A stretch of 10,084 nt of DNA, from the UHGV virus genome UHGV-0216281. One strand, 5' to 3'. Of the stretch, positions 1 to 9,558 are shown one piece after another (positions within the stretch are counted from its first letter, which is position 1; the number at the start of each line of letters is the position of its first letter). The DNA comes from a virus. Under the pieces are notes generated by a model that was given only the letters and a program-made list of their open reading frames with translations, was not told where the DNA came from and searched no databases. The translations under genes and the position numbers were made by a program.

Positions 1-108
1 ACCCCCTTTTGATTTCTTGTTTGACACTTGCAGTTGCCAGACCGCAAGGTGTTTTAACAAATCAAAAGGGGTTTGAATAACTGGCTCAAAGCTGAAAGCT
101 TTCCGGAA

Positions 109-131
109 CCCCCAGCCTAGCTGGGGGTTTT
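109..131 (+). terminator. Intrinsic terminator-like hairpin on the plus strand (cccccagc-cta-gctggggg followed by tttt)
   Basis: 8-bp GC-rich perfect stem at 109-116/120-127 with a 3-nt loop, followed by TTTT at 128-131. No plus-strand ORF lies upstream inside the window, so the transcript it would terminate is unknown. Confidence 0.4.
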
Positions 132-271: not shown

Positions 272-1030
272 TTATCTCGTCACCTTTCTCAATTGTGTTT
301 CAGCATATGCTTCTTCCTGCCAGCACTTTGTTACCAGTTTATCAATGACGTCTGCATATCCTTTGTACCACTGATAATCAGTCAGGTCTGGAACCAGCTT
401 CTGGACATGACGTCGTGCCAGTGTAGTTGGTAAACGGCTAAACCGGTTTCCATTGCAACGCCCACAAATCTTATAAACAGGCGTGCCATGAAGCCGGGTC
501 CTTTTTTCATCCAGGACAATACCTTTACCCTTACACCCTCTGCACGCTGTGCTGACTTCTCCCTTACCATGACAATGCTGGCATAGTTCCTTCACCCACT
601 CTTCCTTGATAACAGATTCCCCGCTTCTGGAGTGTTTCACCACCTCGCGCAATACATTATGAAATCCAGTACCAGCACAATGCTCACAGCGAGCCTTACT
701 TGCCGCAGACCTGGAATAATCAGCAAAGGCAAAATTCACAAGGTAAGGAATGATCTGTAGCCGGGTTTCTTCACTCAATTTATTCAATGTCGGGTTATCC
801 AGTGCCATCGCGTAATTGAGCAGACCTTCAATCGCAAACTGAGGATCCTGAACACCAACTTTTGCCAGGAATAAGGCAAACCCAAGCGGTGCTTTCGACT
901 GCACCATCCCCTGCGCAGCCATCACATCCGTAATCGTTAAACCACCAGAGCCTGTCGCCGGTGCGTCATCGCTCAGTTTTGGAGATTTCGGGGAGTAATA
1001 TTTCGGTAAGGCTTCAAGGTTCATGCTCAT
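272..1030 (-). CDS. Late-gene antitermination protein Q-like (QuuQ-like), with four CxxC motifs of DnaJ-type zinc-finger pattern
   Basis: ORF of 252 aa. A GGAGA Shine-Dalgarno abuts the first ATG, so the second ATG at 1024 (250 aa) is the more likely start. Contains CEHCAGTG, CQHCHGKG, CRGCKGKG and CGRCNGNR (CxxCxGxG-like repeats). It is the last gene of the operon and sits directly upstream of a pR'-like promoter, pause element and terminator. The family assignment is from memory of Qin-type Q proteins and is not verified. Confidence 0.65.
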   Translation of the reverse strand: MSMNLEALPKYYSPKSPKLSDDAPATGSGGLTITDVMAAQGMVQSKAPLGFALFLAKVGVQDPQFAIEGLLNYAMALDNPTLNKLSEETRLQIIPYLVNFAFADYSRSAASKARCEHCAGTGFHNVLREVVKHSRSGESVIKEEWVKELCQHCHGKGEVSTACRGCKGKGIVLDEKRTRLHGTPVYKICGRCNGNRFSRLPTTLARRHVQKLVPDLTDYQWYKGYADVIDKLVTKCWQEEAYAETQLRKVTR

Positions 1031-1037
1031 TCTCCAC

Positions 1038-2033
1038 TTACGCCAGTACGCCTATTGCCAGCGCACGATCGATAAAACGAAATATCAGCTCCAGCTGGGA
1101 ACCATACTTCTCTTCAAATGCCACGGTATCCGCATGCAGCTCGTCGTGATGCTTTCTGCACAAAGGCAACACAAAGAGGTCATGCGCTTTTGTACCCATT
1201 CCCCCCTGACCGTGGCCTATCAGGTGGTGGGGATCATCAGCAGCCTTTCCACAACATGCACACGGCTGTGTCTTAACCCAGCGTGTGTACTTTTCATTAA
1301 CCCAGCGGCGACGTTTTGGGCGTAACATAAAAGACTCCGGCGACTCCGGATCCACTTTCAGCGCCAGCACCTTTTTCGCCTTATCCTGGATGATGCTGGT
1401 GGCAGGAACCGAAGGCACAAGGTCACTTTCCCGGGTGACAGACGGCACAACAGGCTTCGGTAATCTCAGTGCCTTACGGGCTGCACTTTCCGGTAAGGCA
1501 TCCGCCAGGTCATTACGAATCAGCCACCAGCACAGTTCCGGCATTGTCACAACGTGACTATCATCAAAACCGAGATCCCGACGCACAACAGACAACACCC
1601 AGCGGGCACAGTTATCCGTTGCCATTGATTCCAGCCGTTCCGTGAACTGATCGCGCAGCTGGTTATCGCAGTGCCAGCACAGACGGATTGCGCCCGGCGC
1701 GTGTCGCATTGTTGTCATGTTCTCGCTGTGCCAGTCGGAATGAGGCCACTGGCAGCCTTTTTCACGAAGTAACCAGCTTTCAAGACATTCCACGCCACCA
1801 GCACGACGGATCACTGCCTCATTGCGGAACACGGCCCGAACGTCAGGATCATCCGCCAGCGGTTGTGATGCCGCCGGAACAGCACCACTGGCGAAAGATG
1901 AATAACGTTCCGGCTCAGGCTCCAGCAGGACACGCCCCTGCATAAACAGGGGCATCAGCTCTGAACCTGGTCTGAACAATACGATCCCCATACGCGGGGC
2001 AATTTCAGGGGTCAGTAGTGCTCTCACGGTCAC
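1038..2033 (-). CDS. DUF968/YdfU-like prophage protein with a C-terminal Cys/His cluster (possible HNH-like zinc-binding module)
   Basis: ORF of 331 aa from a GTG at 2033; alternative starts are GTG 2027 and ATG 1991. The C-terminus carries CACCG...HHLIGHGQGG...CRKHHDELH. It sits immediately upstream of Q, as ydfU sits upstream of quuQ in the Qin prophage. The start codon is uncertain. Confidence 0.55.
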   Translation of the reverse strand: MTVRALLTPEIAPRMGIVLFRPGSELMPLFMQGRVLLEPEPERYSSFASGAVPAASQPLADDPDVRAVFRNEAVIRRAGGVECLESWLLREKGCQWPHSDWHSENMTTMRHAPGAIRLCWHCDNQLRDQFTERLESMATDNCARWVLSVVRRDLGFDDSHVVTMPELCWWLIRNDLADALPESAARKALRLPKPVVPSVTRESDLVPSVPATSIIQDKAKKVLALKVDPESPESFMLRPKRRRWVNEKYTRWVKTQPCACCGKAADDPHHLIGHGQGGMGTKAHDLFVLPLCRKHHDELHADTVAFEEKYGSQLELIFRFIDRALAIGVLA

Positions 2034-3253: not shown

Positions 3254-3576
3254 ACTTTCAGGCCCCTCTCATGTAACCAGTGGGCTGCACGCAGCCTGGC
3301 GTTTTCCTCACCGACAAGCAGTGAGCGGATAATCCCGACCGCCTCGCTGTCGTCGTCCTTCACCGCGGTATGAAGCGTGATCCCCCGGGCCACACCACGC
3401 TTTATCGTGATGACGCCTTTTTTCTCCAGTGCGCGAAGATGCTCCACCGCTGCATTCACCGAACGGTATCCCAGCATGGTTGCCACTTCCTGATTGGTTG
3501 GCGGGAAGCCACGCTCTTTCTGATAAGAAATCAGCATATCCAGCACCTGCTGCTGGCATTGAGTTAACGTCGTCAT
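3250..3576 (-). CDS. LexA N-terminal DNA-binding-domain protein lacking the S24 peptidase domain
   Basis: 108 aa. Residues 3-70 (LTQCQQQVLDMLISYQKERGFPPTNQEVATMLGYRSVNAAVEHLRALEKKGVITIKRGVARGITL) align closely with the E. coli LexA N-terminus ([65 protein letters not shown]). No Ser/Lys dyad region follows. ATGA overlaps occur on both sides. Confidence 0.8.
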   Translation of the reverse strand: MTTLTQCQQQVLDMLISYQKERGFPPTNQEVATMLGYRSVNAAVEHLRALEKKGVITIKRGVARGITLHTAVKDDDSEAVGIIRSLLVGEENARLRAAHWLHERGLKV

Positions 3577-4226
3577 GCCGCCATCTCCCTGACCAGCTTT
3601 TCCGCCTGCAGGCGAACCTGCGCCAGAAACGCCTCACCACATGCCTCAAGTTCATCGCGCCCGATGTAGCTGATTGCCGGTCCCTTCCAGGTCTTGTCGA
3701 AAACAGCAATAGCACCAGCGAAGAAAGCGCCTGTCGGCACCTGCTTCTCATCCTTCGGGATAAACCAGGCAGGCAGTTCAAAACCAATACGCCCGCGAAT
3801 AAAAGCAATATGATCTGCATCTTCCGGCCACCACACTTCGCTGGTGGCAGCTTTGATCAGGAAAACATAGCGCCCGCCCTTATCACGCATGGCACTGGCA
3901 TGCTTCATGATGTAACGCATGCCGGTGATGTATTGCCCCTCATGCTGACTGGCGCGGCTGTATGGGGGATTTCCAAAGGCAGCACCTTTAAGCTCCGCAA
4001 GGCGTTCTGACCAGTCATGCGCCAGCGCGTTGTCTTCCGCCGTGTAATACGCAGCACATTTGGCGTTATCACCGTCAGTGAACAGATCCAGAACAAACGG
4101 ACCAAACAGGGTGTTAATTCCCCAGAAAATGTTGTCCGGCGTGCGCCACTGATCGCCCACTTCCTTCAGTTCATGGGCTGGTTTGTTCCGCAGTTCCACC
4201 AGCTCCTGGCAATATTTATTACTCAT
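3573..4226 (-). CDS. Phage Dam-family DNA N6-adenine methyltransferase
   Basis: Contains the motif IV sequence GNPPYS (NPPY). The ORF track starts at a GTG at 4259 (228 aa), but the ATG at 4226 overlaps the upstream stop as TAATG, which suggests a coupled start giving a 217-aa product. It occupies the position of the yfdM-like methylase in CPS-53-type prophages. Confidence 0.85.
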   Translation of the reverse strand: MSNKYCQELVELRNKPAHELKEVGDQWRTPDNIFWGINTLFGPFVLDLFTDGDNAKCAAYYTAEDNALAHDWSERLAELKGAAFGNPPYSRASQHEGQYITGMRYIMKHASAMRDKGGRYVFLIKAATSEVWWPEDADHIAFIRGRIGFELPAWFIPKDEKQVPTGAFFAGAIAVFDKTWKGPAISYIGRDELEACGEAFLAQVRLQAEKLVREMAA

Positions 4227-4716: not shown

Positions 4717-5658
4717 TCACCCCCTGAATCCTGCCGGGATCTGGCTGTAGTCCACGTTGTCGTAACTGGCTTTGAAGTACGGGTCTTCGCGTTTTTCGGT
4801 GTACGTGCTGACGGACGGCGATAAGCGCAGGGAAAGCTCATCCCATTTTTCCCGCAACTTCGACGGGCTGAGCACGTTACGGCACCAGAACGGATCGCGG
4901 CTGACGCGGCTGTACATCTCGCAGATTTGTTTGTGAGTACGACCATCCTGCACACACATCAGGCGAATTTCGTTTGCCCATGCTGTCCAGTTAGGTTCTT
5001 TGGGACGAACCACCTCGCCGTCACATTCGGCGGCCTGCTCGTACAGGGCGATGATTTTTTTCCAGAGCCACTGTGCGCAGGTCAAATCATCCTGCGTCCC
5101 CCACTGGCGCTTTTTAGGGCTGAATACAACCGCATCAGGATGGCGAGTTAAAAAATCCTGTTCATCCGTCTGCGTGTCCGGTTGCGAAGCGTCCGGACGA
5201 GAAGGTTTTTTATCTGACGGATCATGTTTTGATTTTACTGACGGATCCCCGCCAGATTCTGACGGGTGAAAACCCGCTTTTTTGCCAGATTTCGACGCAT
5301 CAAATTTTGACGGGTCAGATTTTGATGCGTCAGATTTTGACGGGTCAGAATCTGACAGTTGAGAAAATGCCGCTGCCTGAAGCTTCGCAACGTTAAGCTG
5401 ATAAACATTCGACGCATTGCGGTTACCCTGGCGACGCGCCTTACGCGTTAACCAGCCTTCTGCTTCCAGCCGTGCGATAGCCGTTCTGACGGTACTCATC
5501 CCCGCGCCAATCTGACGGGCAATAGTTTCAATTGATGGCCAGCACACACCTTCGTCATTACTGAAATCAGCCAGGCGGGCCATAATTGCCACGCTGGATA
5601 ATTTCATGCCTGACGCAGCGCAACCATCCCATACATAGCCGGTTAATTTAGTGCTCAT
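4717..5658 (-). CDS. Replication initiation protein, lambda O-like (N-terminal winged-helix/HTH, repeat linker, C-terminal domain)
   Basis: 313 aa. The N-terminus SSVAIMARLADFSNDEGVCWPSIETIARQIGAGMSTVRTAIARLEAEGWLTR is typical of phage and plasmid replication initiator HTH domains. The central low-complexity linker SDPSKSDASKSDPSKFDASKS is encoded by DNA tandem repeats. It sits in the O position after cro and cII. Confidence 0.8.
   Translation of the reverse strand: MSTKLTGYVWDGCAASGMKLSSVAIMARLADFSNDEGVCWPSIETIARQIGAGMSTVRTAIARLEAEGWLTRKARRQGNRNASNVYQLNVAKLQAAAFSQLSDSDPSKSDASKSDPSKFDASKSGKKAGFHPSESGGDPSVKSKHDPSDKKPSRPDASQPDTQTDEQDFLTRHPDAVVFSPKKRQWGTQDDLTCAQWLWKKIIALYEQAAECDGEVVRPKEPNWTAWANEIRLMCVQDGRTHKQICEMYSRVSRDPFWCRNVLSPSKLREKWDELSLRLSPSVSTYTEKREDPYFKASYDNVDYSQIPAGFRG
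5254..5358. repeat. Tandem 15-bp direct repeats (consensus AGATTTTGACGGGTC) inside the O-like gene; candidate origin iterons
   Basis: Units at 5254-5268, 5287-5301, 5302-5316, 5317-5331 and 5332-5346 (the last is a perfect match to the consensus), with a partial unit at 5347-5358 and a degenerate copy at 5231-5247. Four units are contiguous. This parallels the lambda ori iterons embedded in the O gene. Confidence 0.55.
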
Positions 5659-6825: not shown

Positions 6826-6906
6826 TATTGCGTGATAAGCATATTATTTCACGCAAATATTTTGCGCAAGTTGATTTGCTTAACGCGCAATAAAGAAATG
6901 TAATAA
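6826..6906. promoter_or_regulatory. Divergent cI/cro control region: operator-like repeats and candidate pR and pRM promoters
   Basis: 15-bp motif TTGC(A/T)TA-N3-CGCAA at 6876-6890 (plus) and 6828-6842 (minus orientation, ATGCTTATCACGCAA). Extra half-sites TCACGCAA (6849-6856) and palindromic TTGCGCAA (6862-6869) give two TTGCG-N19-CGCAA symmetric units. Candidate pR on the minus strand: -35 TTGCGC (6869..6864), -10 TAATAT (6846..6841). Candidate pRM on the plus strand: -35 TTGCTT (6876-6881), -10 TGTAAT (6899-6904), giving a near-leaderless cI mRNA. Confidence 0.5.
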
Positions 6907-6910
6907 ACGC

Positions 6911-7603
6911 ATGAACATAGGAAACCGAGTCAGACAACTTCGCCAGGCGAAGAACATGAAAATCGCCGATCTCGCTGAAGCAATAGGAGTGGATGCGGCG
7001 AATATCTCACGCCTGGAAACAGGTAAGCAGAAACAATTCACTGAACAAGCCCTGAGTAATATTGCCAGGAGCTTAGGTGTTGATATTGCTGATCTCTTTA
7101 CCTCAGACTTCAAAAGTAATACTGTATGTAAAAACAGTATTAGTGAGGATGTTGCGCAGGTGAAGGATGTATTCCGTATTGAAATGCTGGATGTCAGTGC
7201 CAGTGCGGGAAATGGCCTTATCCAGGGCGGTGATGTCATTGATGTGATTCATGCCATTGAATACAGAACTGATAATGCTGTATCGATGTTTGGCGGACGG
7301 CCAGCCAATCACATTAAAGTTATCAACGTTCGTGGGGACAGTATGTGTCCAACCATTGAGCCAGGAGATCTCATCTTCGTTGATGTCAGTATCAATCAGT
7401 TTGATGGAGATGGTATCTATGTATTTGGTTTTGATGATAAAATTTATGTCAAACGACTGCAAATGATACCTGACAAACTACTGGTGATTTCTGATAACCA
7501 GATTTACCGTGAATGGGGAATTACCAGCGAAAATGAACACCGGTTTATGGTCTTTGGAAAGGTCTTAATCAGCCAGTCACAAACCCTTAAGCGACACAAT
7601 TAA
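6911..7603 (+). CDS. cI: cI-type prophage repressor (N-terminal HTH, C-terminal S24 LexA-like autopeptidase)
   Basis: 230 aa. The N-terminal HTH is IADLAEAIGVDAANISRLETGK. The C-terminus carries the S24 catalytic Ser motif GDSMCPT and the Lys in YVKRL. No Shine-Dalgarno precedes the ATG, consistent with a leaderless message. Confidence 0.9.
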   Translation: MNIGNRVRQLRQAKNMKIADLAEAIGVDAANISRLETGKQKQFTEQALSNIARSLGVDIADLFTSDFKSNTVCKNSISEDVAQVKDVFRIEMLDVSASAGNGLIQGGDVIDVIHAIEYRTDNAVSMFGGRPANHIKVINVRGDSMCPTIEPGDLIFVDVSINQFDGDGIYVFGFDDKIYVKRLQMIPDKLLVISDNQIYREWGITSENEHRFMVFGKVLISQSQTLKRHN

Positions 7604-7623
7604 CCCTTACCTCCTCATCAATT

Positions 7624-7648
7624 AGCCACCCAAAGGTGGCTTTTCATT
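7624..7648 (+). terminator. Intrinsic terminator downstream of the repressor gene
   Basis: Stem agccacc / ggtggct with loop caaa, followed by TTTT(C)ATT. It lies 20 bp after the cI stop. Confidence 0.6.
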
Positions 7649-7658
7649 ACCCTTTAAA

Positions 7659-7711
7659 TTGCATATCTCGCAACAAAAACACTTGCATAATGCGCAACTT
7701 CATTTTATCTT
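7659..7711 (+). promoter_or_regulatory. OL/pL-like region: two copies of the 15-bp operator motif plus a candidate leftward promoter
   Basis: TTGCATATCTCGCAA (7659-7673) and TTGCATAATGCGCAA (7683-7697) match the motif seen in the cI/cro region. Candidate -35 TTGCAT (7683-7688), 17-nt spacer, -10 TATCTT (7706-7711). Confidence 0.4.
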
Positions 7712-8121
7712 TCTTTCCAGACAAACAAACAAGGTACTAACAAAATTTGGTTGTAACACGGCGTATGGCACATGCGTCGTTAGCGGTCTGGGGACGTTAA
7801 AGGGGACAATCCACTCCTTGCTCGGGCAAACAAACCAGGTAGCCGGAATGTGCAAGTCAATGATGATGCTGATAAGACGCCTAACCAGCGTGGCGATTCG
7901 GTTTGACGCCTGGGAAGAGACCAGGGTGCAACGATGAGGGCATTTATGGAGCCGCGACAAAGTGTGGTGCTGTAACTGGCTAAGTGCTCTCAGCGTTGTG
8001 GTAATCCGCGAAATGGCGCGGCGGTAAGTATGGCGGGGTTACTCTTTCCCCGTTGAGGACACCGGATTGTCAGGTTGACCATACGCCTGAGTGACAAGCC
8101 CACCACAACAGCCACTGCTTT

Positions 8122-8168
8122 GGCGGTACCAGTTTGTACACTTGCTTCCGGCTGGTACCGCTCTTTTT
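8122..8168 (+). terminator. Terminator-like hairpin with a T-run (tL1-like), overlapping a boxA-like CGCTCTT core
   Basis: Stem ggcggtaccag (8122-8132) pairs with ctggtaccgc(t) (8152-8162) around a 19-nt loop, followed by CTCTTTTT. CGCTCTT at 8159-8165 matches the core of lambda nut boxA (CGCTCTTA). The loop is large for a canonical terminator. Confidence 0.4.
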
Positions 8169-8257
8169 ACAAAACAGAGAAGAGCATCACCGGACGACGG
8201 GCTCATAACCCAATCCATCCGGGCGGCTGCCACCGCAGGTGTTCTTCTCTGTTTTGT
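8169..8257 (+). repeat. Long-range inverted repeat (15 bp perfect, extendable to about 20 bp with G-U pairs) enclosing about 50 nt, immediately upstream of the yfdP-like start
   Basis: acaaaacagagaaga (8169-8183) is the exact reverse complement of tcttctctgttttgt (8243-8257). Pairing continues through 8188/8238 if G-U pairs are allowed. The interior contains a further small hairpin, gcgg-ctgcca-ccgc. Confidence 0.6.
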
Positions 8258-8305
8258 GGAGAAACCAACCGACCTTGCAGGGTCGATATGATGAGGAGCA
8301 GCAAA

Positions 8306-8668
8306 ATGGCTAGCGAACGCAGTACTGATGTGCAGGCATTTATCGGGGAGCTGGACGGCGGCGTATTTGAAACCAAAATCGGCGCAGTTCTCAGTGAAGT
8401 CGCTTCCGGTGTGATGAACACAAAAACCAAAGGTAAGGTCTCACTCAACCTGGAAATCGAACCATTTGATGAGAACCGTGTGAAAATCAAACACAAACTC
8501 TCATATGTTCGCCCGACTAACCGCGGGAAAATTTCCGAAGAAGACACCACCGAAACGCCGATGTATGTCAATCGCGGTGGTCGCCTGACTATTCTGCAGG
8601 AAGACCAGGGACAATTACTGACTCTTGCCGGTGAACCTGACGGAAAACTACGCGCAGCAGGTCATTAA
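8306..8668 (+). CDS. yfdP: YfdP-like protein (120 aa, unknown function)
   Basis: ATG at 8306 preceded by an AGGAG RBS with a 7-nt spacer. The ORF-track extension back to 8075 (TTG start) has non-protein-like composition and no RBS. The 120-aa size and the order with the following 274-aa and HD-domain genes match yfdP-yfdQ-yfdR of CPS-53 as I recall them. Confidence 0.65.
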   Translation: MASERSTDVQAFIGELDGGVFETKIGAVLSEVASGVMNTKTKGKVSLNLEIEPFDENRVKIKHKLSYVRPTNRGKISEEDTTETPMYVNRGGRLTILQEDQGQLLTLAGEPDGKLRAAGH

Positions 8669-8733: not shown

Positions 8734-9558
8734 ATGTCTCAGAACTTAGACGCAACCGCAATTAATCAAATCCATGCCCTTATTTCTGCTCAGGGTGTTA
8801 ATGAAATTATCAGTAAGATTGGTGCCGATGCTGTGGCATTGCCTGAGAATTTCCGCATTCATGATCTGGAAAAATTTAATTTAAATCGCTTCCGTTTCCG
8901 TGGCGCGCTTTCCACTGCCAGCATCGATGATTTTACCCGTTATTCTAAAGATCTTGCGGATGAAGGCACCCGCTGCTTTATCGATGCCGATAATATGCGT
9001 GCCGTCAGTGTGCTTAACCTGGGTACTATTGATGAGCCTGGTCACGCAGATAACACCGCCACTCTCAAACTGAAAAAGACAGCACCGTTCTCTGCTCTGT
9101 TGTCTGTTAACGGCGAGCGTAACTCCCAGAAGTCACTGGCAGAATGGATTGAAGACTGGGCCGACTACCTTGTGGGCTTTGATGCTAATGGTGATGCCAT
9201 TCAGGCAACAAAAGCGGCTGCGGCAGTCCGTAAAATCACGATTGAAGCAAACCAGACCGCTGATTTTGAAGACAATGACTTCAGCGGCAAACGCTCCCTG
9301 ATGGAGTCTGTCGAAGCGAAGACCAAAGATATTATGCCAGTGGCATTTGAATTTAAATGCGTTCCGTTTGAAGGCCTGAAAGAACGTCCGTTTAAATTAC
9401 GCCTCAGCATTATCACTGGCGATCGTCCTGTACTGGTTCTGCGCATTATTCAGCTGGAAGCAGTGCAGGAAGAAATGGCTAACGAATTTCGTGATCTGCT
9501 TGTTGAGAAATTCAAGGACAGCAAAGTAGAAACCTTTATTGGTACTTTTACCGCCTGA
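8734..9558 (+). CDS. yfdQ: YfdQ-like protein (274 aa, DUF2303-like, unknown function)
   Basis: ATG with a GAGGA RBS and 6-nt spacer. A clean 274-aa ORF with no competing frames. Identity is inferred from size and synteny. Confidence 0.7.

Follow-up and report, generated by a model that had tools for sequence, protein, structure and literature searches.

What occupies the approximately 700 nucleotides (nt) without an annotated gene that separate the terminator-like hairpin behind the cI repressor gene from yfdP in the virus genome UHGV-0216281? We addressed this question in a stretch of 10,084 nt of that genome, hereafter the window, in which a preliminary description had singled out positions 7700-8305 as a highly structured leader, poor in open reading frames (ORFs), downstream of the left operators (OL) and the early left promoter (pL), and had proposed RNA-based antitermination or a regulatory RNA. 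We lean towards reading this interval as the untranslated head of the pL operon, encoding an array of noncoding RNAs that would be cut from one transcript. The array comprises a conserved structured RNA at 7758-7998, which we term RNA A and which the preliminary description had missed, a module related to the locus of the small RNA (sRNA) DicF in the Qin prophage, and a long-range stem just upstream of yfdP.

A conserved structured RNA at the head of the leader

RNA A surfaced through BLAST searches with the leader, which matched noncoding gaps in otherwise unrelated phages, including phage P1 (the trnI-ban gap), D6, the Uetakeviruses phiV10, TL-2011b and SPN1S and a Klebsiella phage. The alignment of these elements consists of invariant blocks with variable hairpins between them. 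The covariance model of RNA A, designated R1, identified a single copy in the window (7758-7932, 137 bits, E=4e-39), to which the following elements were assigned.

7758-7998, plus strand: RNA A, conserved structured RNA; core helices P1-P5 at 7758-7932 (model R1 match) and closing hairpin P6
7759-7779, plus strand: helix P1, CGGCGUAUG-GCA-CAUGCGUCG; among 77 distinct copies, pair 6:18 occurs as GC (36) or AU (40)
7787-7839, plus strand: helix P2, UCUGG/CCAGG around a variable domain; covarying pairs
7838-7858, plus strand: near-invariant segment of 21 nt, GGUAGCCGGAAUGUGCAAGUC; near-zero entropy across 77 distinct copies
7877-7903, plus strand: helix P4, ACGC/GCGU, with loop CUAACCA and a pseudoknot of AACC (7883-7886) with GGUU (7900-7903); covariation
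7909-7925, plus strand: helix P5, CCUGG-GAAGAGA-CCAGG; both-side changes in four of the five pairs
7929-7998, plus strand: helix P6, a long hairpin with a variable tip, from the fold; putative RNase III site

In an alignment of 28 sequences, 94.9% of the cells in the proposed pairing were paired, as compared to 25-55% when the partners were slid against each other. Changes on both sides were observed for 12 pairs (69 cells), and none of 500 shuffles came up to the observed value. Within helix P2, pair 32:86 is CG in 21 sequences and UA in seven, and pair 33:85 is GC in 26 and AU in two. Mutual information computed over 77 distinct model-aligned copies ranked the proposed helices and the pseudoknot as the top pairs; here, the inner P2 pair 39:84 alternates between GC (41) and AU (25). 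Pair 141:149 of helix P4 is found as AU (14), UG (7) and CG (6), and the pseudoknot pair as CG (69) and AU (7), the window carrying the AU form (AACC/GGUU) in place of the usual CACC loop with GGUG. Because of the G-U pairs, the plus strand is the RNA strand. The 21-nt segment has zero entropy save for its third-last base, which is U in the window and C in most copies, and it is nearly invariant also among copies that were retrieved via another motif.

Three further pairings were considered and discarded. The pairing of GCACAU (7768-7773) with AUGUGC (7848-7853) suggested by RNAalifold is invariant on both sides and clashes with the covarying helix P1; a P3 helix, GUGC/GCAC, has no both-side changes and is absent from the window, phage P1 and D6; and inspection of the alignments gave no covariation for a kissing contact of loop UUCC in P2 with loop GGAA in P5.

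RNA A is widespread and apparently undescribed

The RNA A 19-mer GGTAGCCGGAATGTGCAAG is present in at least 120 viral contigs, and the 105 distinct cores form 42 clusters at 93% identity. Among 5426 complete E. coli genomes, 1833 carry RNA A, and its position there bears no annotation; it was further detected in 593 plasmids and in 23 contigs from approximately 18 Enterobacterales species. Its neighborhoods are diverse. Lambdoid phages of at least ten immunity types carry RNA A directly after the repressor gene and on the same strand, followed by varied early-left genes; all eight upstream ORFs tested encode helix-turn-helix (HTH) repressors, five of them S24 cI-like. In P1-like phages the order is tRNA(CAT), RNA A and ban, with RNA A of phage P1 itself lying between trnI and ban. 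In Uetakeviruses, an island opposite the late genes holds RNA A, tRNA-Arg, a DicF-like terminator hairpin, a second terminator and a small ORF. Overall, a same-strand tRNA abuts RNA A in 41 of the 120 loci. One contig, L029, has two tandem copies approximately 650 nt apart (3993-4153 and 4800-4958, minus strand; 134 and 171 bits).

The scan with Infernal and Rfam that the preliminary description had called for yielded no credible family for the leader: Rfam 15, queried at gathering score and at E<=10, gave no credible match for RNA A or the leader (7550-8400), and the only gathering-score match in the whole window is STnc490. A tRNA/tmRNA search of the window was likewise negative. Full-text literature searches with 13-19-mers of RNA A returned no description of it and only a table of spacers from clustered regularly interspaced short palindromic repeats (CRISPR). 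In that table, the Enterobacter cloacae DSM 16690 spacer ATCGTGGCGATCAGGTGTGACACCTCGGAAGA (PMC5888411) is identical to common RNA A variants at approximately window positions 7889-7920; hosts thus target the RNA A element. RNA A is, apparently, a previously undescribed and very widespread structured RNA: unannotated and absent from Rfam, it combines riboswitch-grade conservation and covariation with presence in a third of complete E. coli genomes and in about 600 phage-plasmids.

A dicBF-type locus with a different sRNA head

Downstream of RNA A, homology to the dicF locus of Qin (E. coli K-12) spans window positions 7994-8262 and comprises the following elements.

7994-8168, plus strand: element B and sRNA hairpin, counterpart of sRNA-17 and of the 190-nt DicF species; primer mapping and Qin homology
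8004-8100, plus strand: element B, a conserved dicF-precursor structure; compensatory changes in its helix P1 (GUAAGCAUGG/CCAUGC)
8122-8168, plus strand: DicF-type sRNA hairpin and intrinsic terminator with a diverged head; fold with 13 pairs at 8122-8162, then CUUUUU at 8163-8168
8164-8262, plus strand: long-range stem of approximately 25 bp, 8164-8188 with 8238-8262; putative RNase III site for read-through transcripts, from fold and homology

Positions 7994-8100 match the sequence immediately preceding dicF in Qin at 98 of 107 sites. The terminator-like hairpin of the preliminary description is real, and as in dicBF-type loci, in which a GGCGG...CCGCC-type hairpin precedes a U-run, the window couples a 13-bp hairpin to CUUUUU and places a conserved precursor element immediately 5' of the sRNA. 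The window head UUUGGCGGUACCAGUUUGUAC and DicF UUUGGCGGUAUCAGUUUUAC share 35 of 47 positions, including the hairpin start UUUGGCGGUA.CAGUUU; their loops and 3' arms differ. Judged by its sequence, the 3' part of the leader (7994-8262) is a dicBF-type locus with a different sRNA head, for which UUUGUACACUUGCUUCCGG is the candidate seed.

In a scan of viral contigs, element B was found in front of canonical DicF as well as of six or more other hairpin heads, the window type among them. Element B also precedes the annotated 'dicF-like region' of the phage P1 ban operon, with compensatory changes. Taken together, these occurrences describe DicF-type loci as a conserved processing platform with exchangeable sRNA heads; the host targets of their sRNAs are accordingly predicted to differ between prophage types. 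In phiV10-type phages a tRNA takes the place of element B, and in one of them (L008) a terminator hairpin, GGCGGTGATGG...CTATCACCGCCCTTTTT, that resembles DicF-type heads follows tRNA-Arg at 2862-2902.

Among the options listed in the preliminary description, an RNase III-processed leader and an sRNA both suit this 3' part, given its homology to Qin dicF (PMC10448788; PMC5069750) and to sRNA-17 (PMC7719688). Three DicF species of Qin are relevant here. The 53-nt form has its 3' end at the terminator (PMC5069750) and its 5' end made by RNase E (PMC5069750; PMC10448788), the 3' end of the 72-nt form is an RNase III cut in read-through RNA (PMC5069750), and the 5' end of a 190-nt species is made by RNase III (PMC10448788; PMC5069750). 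Cutting by these two nucleases and Hfq binding are documented for Qin, and the 5' end of sRNA-17 is in keeping with them.

Known and predicted RNA ends converge on hairpin P6

sRNA-17 was described in an mEp460-like prophage of E. coli K1 RS218 as a 193-nt RNA by rapid amplification of cDNA ends (RACE) and Northern blotting (PMC7719688). Its 'full-length' primers, CGTTGTGG... and the reverse complement of ...GTACACTTGCTTCCGGCTGGTACCGCTCTTTT, map to window positions 7994 and 8135-8166, and its RACE-defined ends, CGTTGTGG on the 5' side and the terminator ...GGTACCGCTCTTTT on the 3' side, are both found in the window, with different sequence between them. The authors drew no relation of sRNA-17 to DicF (PMC7719688); the present comparison ties this virulence-linked RNA to the DicF system. 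The fragment used in that study as the 'sRNA-17 promoter' for ArcA gel shifts corresponds to window 7745-7996, that is, to the DNA of RNA A. The quantitative reverse-transcription PCR amplicon of the same study spans from RNA A to element B, and pL read-through transcripts were thus measured.

The 5' end of sRNA-17 (CGTTGTGG, position 7994) falls within the 3' strand of P6. Placed by length, the 5' end of the 190-nt DicF species would lie within the 3' strand of the P6 remnant of Qin, GTGCGCTTCCGGTTGTGG, and the Uetakevirus tRNA-Arg starts at the GUGG of ...GCGUUGUGG, a few nt from the sRNA-17 5' end. The coincidence of these three ends makes P6 the likely site of release by RNase III.

The same observations bear on an alternative that we judge improbable, namely that RNA A has no function of its own and is a cis-acting platform, consisting of a 5' structure and an RNase III hairpin, for the processing or stability of the adjacent tRNA, sRNA or mRNA. 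Processing sites, whether tRNA ends or P6, do always flank RNA A, and P6 is homologous to the Qin remnant that bears an RNase III cut. However, such a platform has no need for a 21-nt invariant strand, a pseudoknot and invariant helix bases maintained across approximately 18 species and three phage groups, and Qin, which retains P6 alone, processes DicF nonetheless.

A long-range stem connects the terminator to the yfdP leader

An inverted repeat of 15-20 bp had been claimed downstream of the terminator. The repeat is real and is longer, at approximately 25 bp (8164-8188 with 8238-8262). Folding of 8115-8262, a check that the preliminary description had proposed for the whole leader, gave -71.5 kcal/mol as compared to -43.0 +/- 3.4 kcal/mol for shuffled sequences (z = -8.4), with none of 200 shuffles as good. 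As in dicBF-type loci, the U-run region thereby forms a long duplex with a segment 5' of the next gene; the Qin stem, AGUGAAUUUUGUGAUG...CAUCACAAAAUUCAUU, extends from the U-run to before the dicB ribosome-binding site (RBS) in the same architecture. Compensatory base changes, which had likewise been suggested as a check, do occur in related types: the Qin, L128 and L345 types preserve the long stem with such changes, for example ACACAACAGAC/CUCUGUUGUGU in L345. Because the architecture is shared with Qin and is kept by compensatory changes elsewhere, we infer that the window repeat is the counterpart of the Qin RNase III site that gives rise to the 72-nt DicF.

The leader has no conserved coding capacity

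Could the interval nevertheless encode small proteins, such as the 64-residue ORF at 8039-8233 on the minus strand, the 29-codon ORF at 7848-7937, or the mEp460 gp36/gp37? Two ORFs do have matches in PHROGs, phrog_3651 (E=2e-37) at 8039-8233 (minus strand) and phrog_33599 at 8091-8291 (plus strand), both across the DicF-type RNA, and most RNA A copies contain some stop-free frame. However, the strand and phase of these frames vary from copy to copy with no common frame, and the spacings between conserved RNA A blocks are spread over all three phases (29/24/22 and 39/20/16) rather than being multiples of three. The 64-residue ORF, annotated in phage records, is broken, by a frameshift or by a stop codon within the frame, in five related types (L128, L345, Qin, L321 and L336); the two PHROG families were thus probably built on spurious, repeated ORF calls over conserved noncoding DNA, and some phage ORF families can be flagged as probable artefacts of ORF calling over noncoding RNA genes. 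The leader ORFs have no Pfam match, and in 20 near-identical E. coli genomes PGAP annotates no gene between the XRE/cI repressor and yfdP. The ORF-poor character noted for 7700-8305 is thereby upheld, and a protein-coding explanation is very unlikely.

The preliminary description had also reported that no gene for an N-like antiterminator follows pL. None is encoded in the window, which does contain Q, cI, Cro and CII. The 62 annotated features of PhiR47_1, a complete phage that shares the immunity region and is 97.5% identical to the window there, include Q but no N. In other phages, none of the first ORFs after RNA A is Arg-rich or N-like.

Position of the leader in the early operon

The array is embedded in a lambdoid immunity region with the following landmarks.

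6911-7603, plus strand: cI-type repressor with HTH and Peptidase_S24 domains; domain search
7624-7641, plus strand: terminator-like hairpin at the end of the cI transcript; seven pairs, then TTTTC, found by scan
7659-7697, no strand assigned: two OL operators, TTGCATATCTCGCAA (7659-7673) and TTGCATAATGCGCAA (7683-7697); exact TTGC-N7-GCAA
7683-7711, plus strand: putative pL, with -35 TTGCAT (7683-7688), a 17-nt spacer and -10 TATCTT (7706-7711); direct reading of the sequence
8293-8308, plus strand: yfdP RBS GAGGAG (8293-8298) and ATG at 8306; sequence, product matching phrog_204
8306-8668, plus strand: yfdP, first gene after the leader
8734-9558, plus strand: yfdQ/DUF2303, downstream of yfdP

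Since cro, a CII-like gene, the replication genes and Q (272-1030) are on the minus strand, with the repressor and yfdP/yfdQ on the plus strand, the plus strand corresponds to the lambdoid 'leftward' direction. The window has exact TTGC-N7-GCAA palindromes at three sites only, namely at 6876 within the gap between cro and cI and at 7659 and 7683 downstream of cI. This confinement supports the OL/pL assignment of the preliminary description. A consensus promoter scan did not pick up the TTGCAT/TATCTT pair; transcription from this putative pL would start near 7719.

A mosaic boundary lies at approximately 7730-7739: the cdtI, Ayreon and Stx2c phages are 99% identical to the window from 7739 on, and their cI genes and operators differ from those of the window. 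With identity beginning only there despite different repressors and operators, the RNA array appears as a module that moves separately from immunity. At the other end of the window, just downstream of Q, the Hfq-binding sRNA STnc490 of Rfam is matched over its full length (6-129, minus strand, 143.9 bits); this is probably the pR'-tR' late-leader transcript, by analogy with StxS.

RNA A and antitermination in phages without N

Phages lacking N raise the question of how the early left operon is transcribed through its terminators. In lambda, the nut site combines boxA with boxB in the leader, and N is the first gene of the pL operon. The preliminary description had pointed to CGCTCTT as the core of a nut boxA. 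The heptamer is indeed present, at 8159-8165, where it consists of the end of the terminator stem and the U-run; the sister sequences read CCGCCCTTTTT, CCGACCTTTTT or CCGTCCTTTTT at this site, and with this variation it is not a conserved boxA. No match to the rrn-type boxA (UGCUCUUUAACAA; TGCTCTTTAACAA) was found in the window within three mismatches. Exact rrn boxA sequences were recovered only from the relatives L091 and L182 (6806-6817) and from the rrnB control. In L091, the exact rrn-type boxA TGCTCTTTAACAA stands at 3364-3375, right after RNA A and a hairpin, and in the put-like locus L257, put stem I is followed by the boxA CGCTCTTTAACAATCTGG. RNA A, put and boxA seem to be modules that mix within the leader slot behind pL. 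True boxA elements thus occur in this leader of some relatives, but for the window itself, where the heptamer is a variable accident of stem end and U-run, no rrn-type boxA is found within the stated limit, and N is absent from both the window and the PhiR47_1 annotation, classical Nus-dependent antitermination through a lambda-type nut or rrn-type boxA is highly improbable.

A second precedent is the put RNA of HK022, which causes read-through of terminators in cis in a manner dependent on the zinc-binding domain of the beta' subunit. The resemblance of RNA A to put in ACGGCG..CATGCGTCG led us to consider RNA A as a member of the put family. From putL-like elements in at least 120 contigs matching GAACGGCNCG..CATGCGTCGG (L200-L319), we collected 61 distinct sequences, whose stem II shows clear compensatory changes; 19 of them were used for a put covariance model, R2. 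R2 scored HK022 putL at 95.5 bits and putR at 51.7 bits; with filters off and at E<=10 it matched nothing in the leaders of the window, mEp460, SfII, Ayreon, phage P1, phiV10 or L091. In the converse direction, R1 had no match to HK022 or HK639 put. Membership in the put family is excluded by these searches. Of the regulatory RNA that the preliminary description had envisaged, a noncoding, structured regulatory RNA is retained; its nut and put versions are not. As a separate observation, mEp460 (L001) carries the Rfam C4 antisense RNA (83.6 bits) beside isrK (67 bits) in its antirepressor region (865-1053, minus strand), and neither has a counterpart in the window at gathering score.

Exclusion from the family leaves the related idea that RNA A is a functional analogue of put, that is, a cis-acting RNA that would modify the transcribing RNA polymerase or block Rho and, in place of N, would carry transcription from pL past the long untranslated region and the terminator of the sRNA in this large group of lambdoid phages. 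We regard this as possible, though rather unlikely. RNA A occupies the putL position, first after pL, in at least ten immunity types, where the upstream ORFs tested are invariably HTH repressors and N is lacking. Transcription from RNA A towards the first gene would meet an intrinsic terminator in the window, and two terminators precede the ORF in Uetakeviruses. Helix P1 of RNA A is similar to put stem I, ACGGCG...CAUGCGUCG, with a CAUG that includes the equivalent of U28 (PMC9378689), and L091 and L257 have a boxA in the same leader slot, preceded by RNA A in the former (an exact rrn boxA) and by put stem I in the latter. On the other hand, no covariance model links RNA A to put, and RNA A is approximately 2.5 to 3.5 times as long, with another architecture. 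In phage P1, the dicF-like terminator is upstream rather than downstream of RNA A, and the terminase gene of Uetakeviruses would be transcribed in antisense if antitermination there were processive. Furthermore, Qin expresses dicB beyond the DicF terminator without an RNA A core, and each phage has only a single RNA A, with no second copy in its pR operon.

A broader version of this idea, which we offer as a speculation and consider unlikely, is that RNA A represents a new class of phage RNA with the host transcription machinery as its direct target. Consisting of RNA alone and sharing no sequence relationship with put, it would serve as an antiterminator or anti-Rho element and take over the role of N at pL in a large share of enterobacterial lambdoid prophages; in P1-like phages and Uetakeviruses, it would shield untranslated transcription units for tRNAs and sRNAs as well. 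RNA A marks the first transcribed early-left position in many N-less lambdoid phages; as the passage of such phages through their early terminators is an open question, RNA A is a concrete and testable candidate.

A model for the leader

The reading of RNA A that we favour is that of a stable, processed and trans-acting RNA within the noncoding array proposed above. Its five helices and pseudoknot present the 21-nt invariant segment, with the long hairpin P6 closing the structure. Cleavage of P6 by RNase III would release RNA A, whose target in trans may be a conserved host component; flanking tRNAs would provide for its release in place of P6 in other phages. Three features argue for action in trans: RNA A acts like a portable gene within tRNA and sRNA clusters, its position relative to the DicF-type terminator varies (it is downstream of it in phage P1), and its 21-nt single strand is kept invariant across hosts.

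In the DicF-type module (7994-8168), element B is followed by an sRNA hairpin that doubles as the intrinsic terminator, and the module would yield a species of approximately 175 nt with a 5' end made by RNase III, as suggested by homology with Qin dicF and sRNA-17. RNase E would trim this species to a short, presumably Hfq-binding sRNA. The seed of the window head differs from that of DicF, and its targets should therefore also differ from the canonical DicF targets (ftsZ, xylR, pykA and manX). When the terminator is read through, the U-run and the next 20 nt would pair with 8238-8262, just upstream of the yfdP RBS, and cutting of the resulting duplex of approximately 25 bp by RNase III would separate the sRNA from the yfdP mRNA.

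Several points weigh against this model. For P6 as well as for the long stem, the positions of the RNase III cuts derive from homology and length. For the presumed trans role, no host target was found, and stretches of RNA A complementary to the 16S, 23S and 5S rRNA of E. coli do not exceed 9 nt, the level expected by chance. RNA A of lambdoid phages is always the first element transcribed after the repressor gene, a position no less compatible with action in cis than with action in trans. Lastly, the Rfam DicF family (RF00039) has no match in window 7550-8400 at E<=10, with the Qin control at 76.7 bits against a threshold of 48; phage P1, phiV10 and mEp460 give no match either. The 5' 19 nt of DicF are missing in the window, and the DicF seed regions, the 5' UUUCUGGUGACG (xylR/pykA) and the 3' part (ftsZ), are not reproduced there. 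With the family model failing and the 5' seed missing, the term DicF-type refers to homology of the locus and not of the mature sRNA.

Comparison with known systems

Among known phage RNAs, put of HK022 and HK639 resembles RNA A in location. Both lie directly downstream of pL in N-less lambdoid phages, RNA A approximately 40 nt after the putative pL start; this similarity is positional only. Both are structured RNAs with invariant unpaired bases, and they share a local helix, CGGCG/CGUCG, preceded by CAUG. Whereas put has approximately 70 nt and two stems, RNA A has 170-240 nt, five helices and a pseudoknot, and it also occurs outside pL leaders, beside tRNAs. The association of structured phage RNAs with tRNA genes is a known pattern. 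GOLLD and ROOL are such tRNA-linked noncoding RNAs; they are far larger than RNA A and unrelated to it, and no Rfam family matches RNA A.

The downstream module has known relatives as well. sRNA-17 shares its locus, strand and ends with the window module, which is shorter at approximately 173 nt; element B of mEp460/RS218 differs in sequence and is approximately 20 nt longer. The phage P1 ban operon combines the same kinds of units, with element B and the dicF-like hairpin after P_ban, then tRNAs and RNA A; it differs in module order, and RNA A is unannotated in P1. The Qin dicBF locus, like that of the window, is a pL-equivalent operon under a cI/DicA-type repressor, with an RNase III hairpin 5' of the precursor and an sRNA hairpin that ends in an intrinsic terminator. 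The two loci differ at their borders: the next gene is dicB in Qin and yfdP in the window, and where Qin has ydfABC and the P6 remnant upstream, the window retains the complete RNA A.

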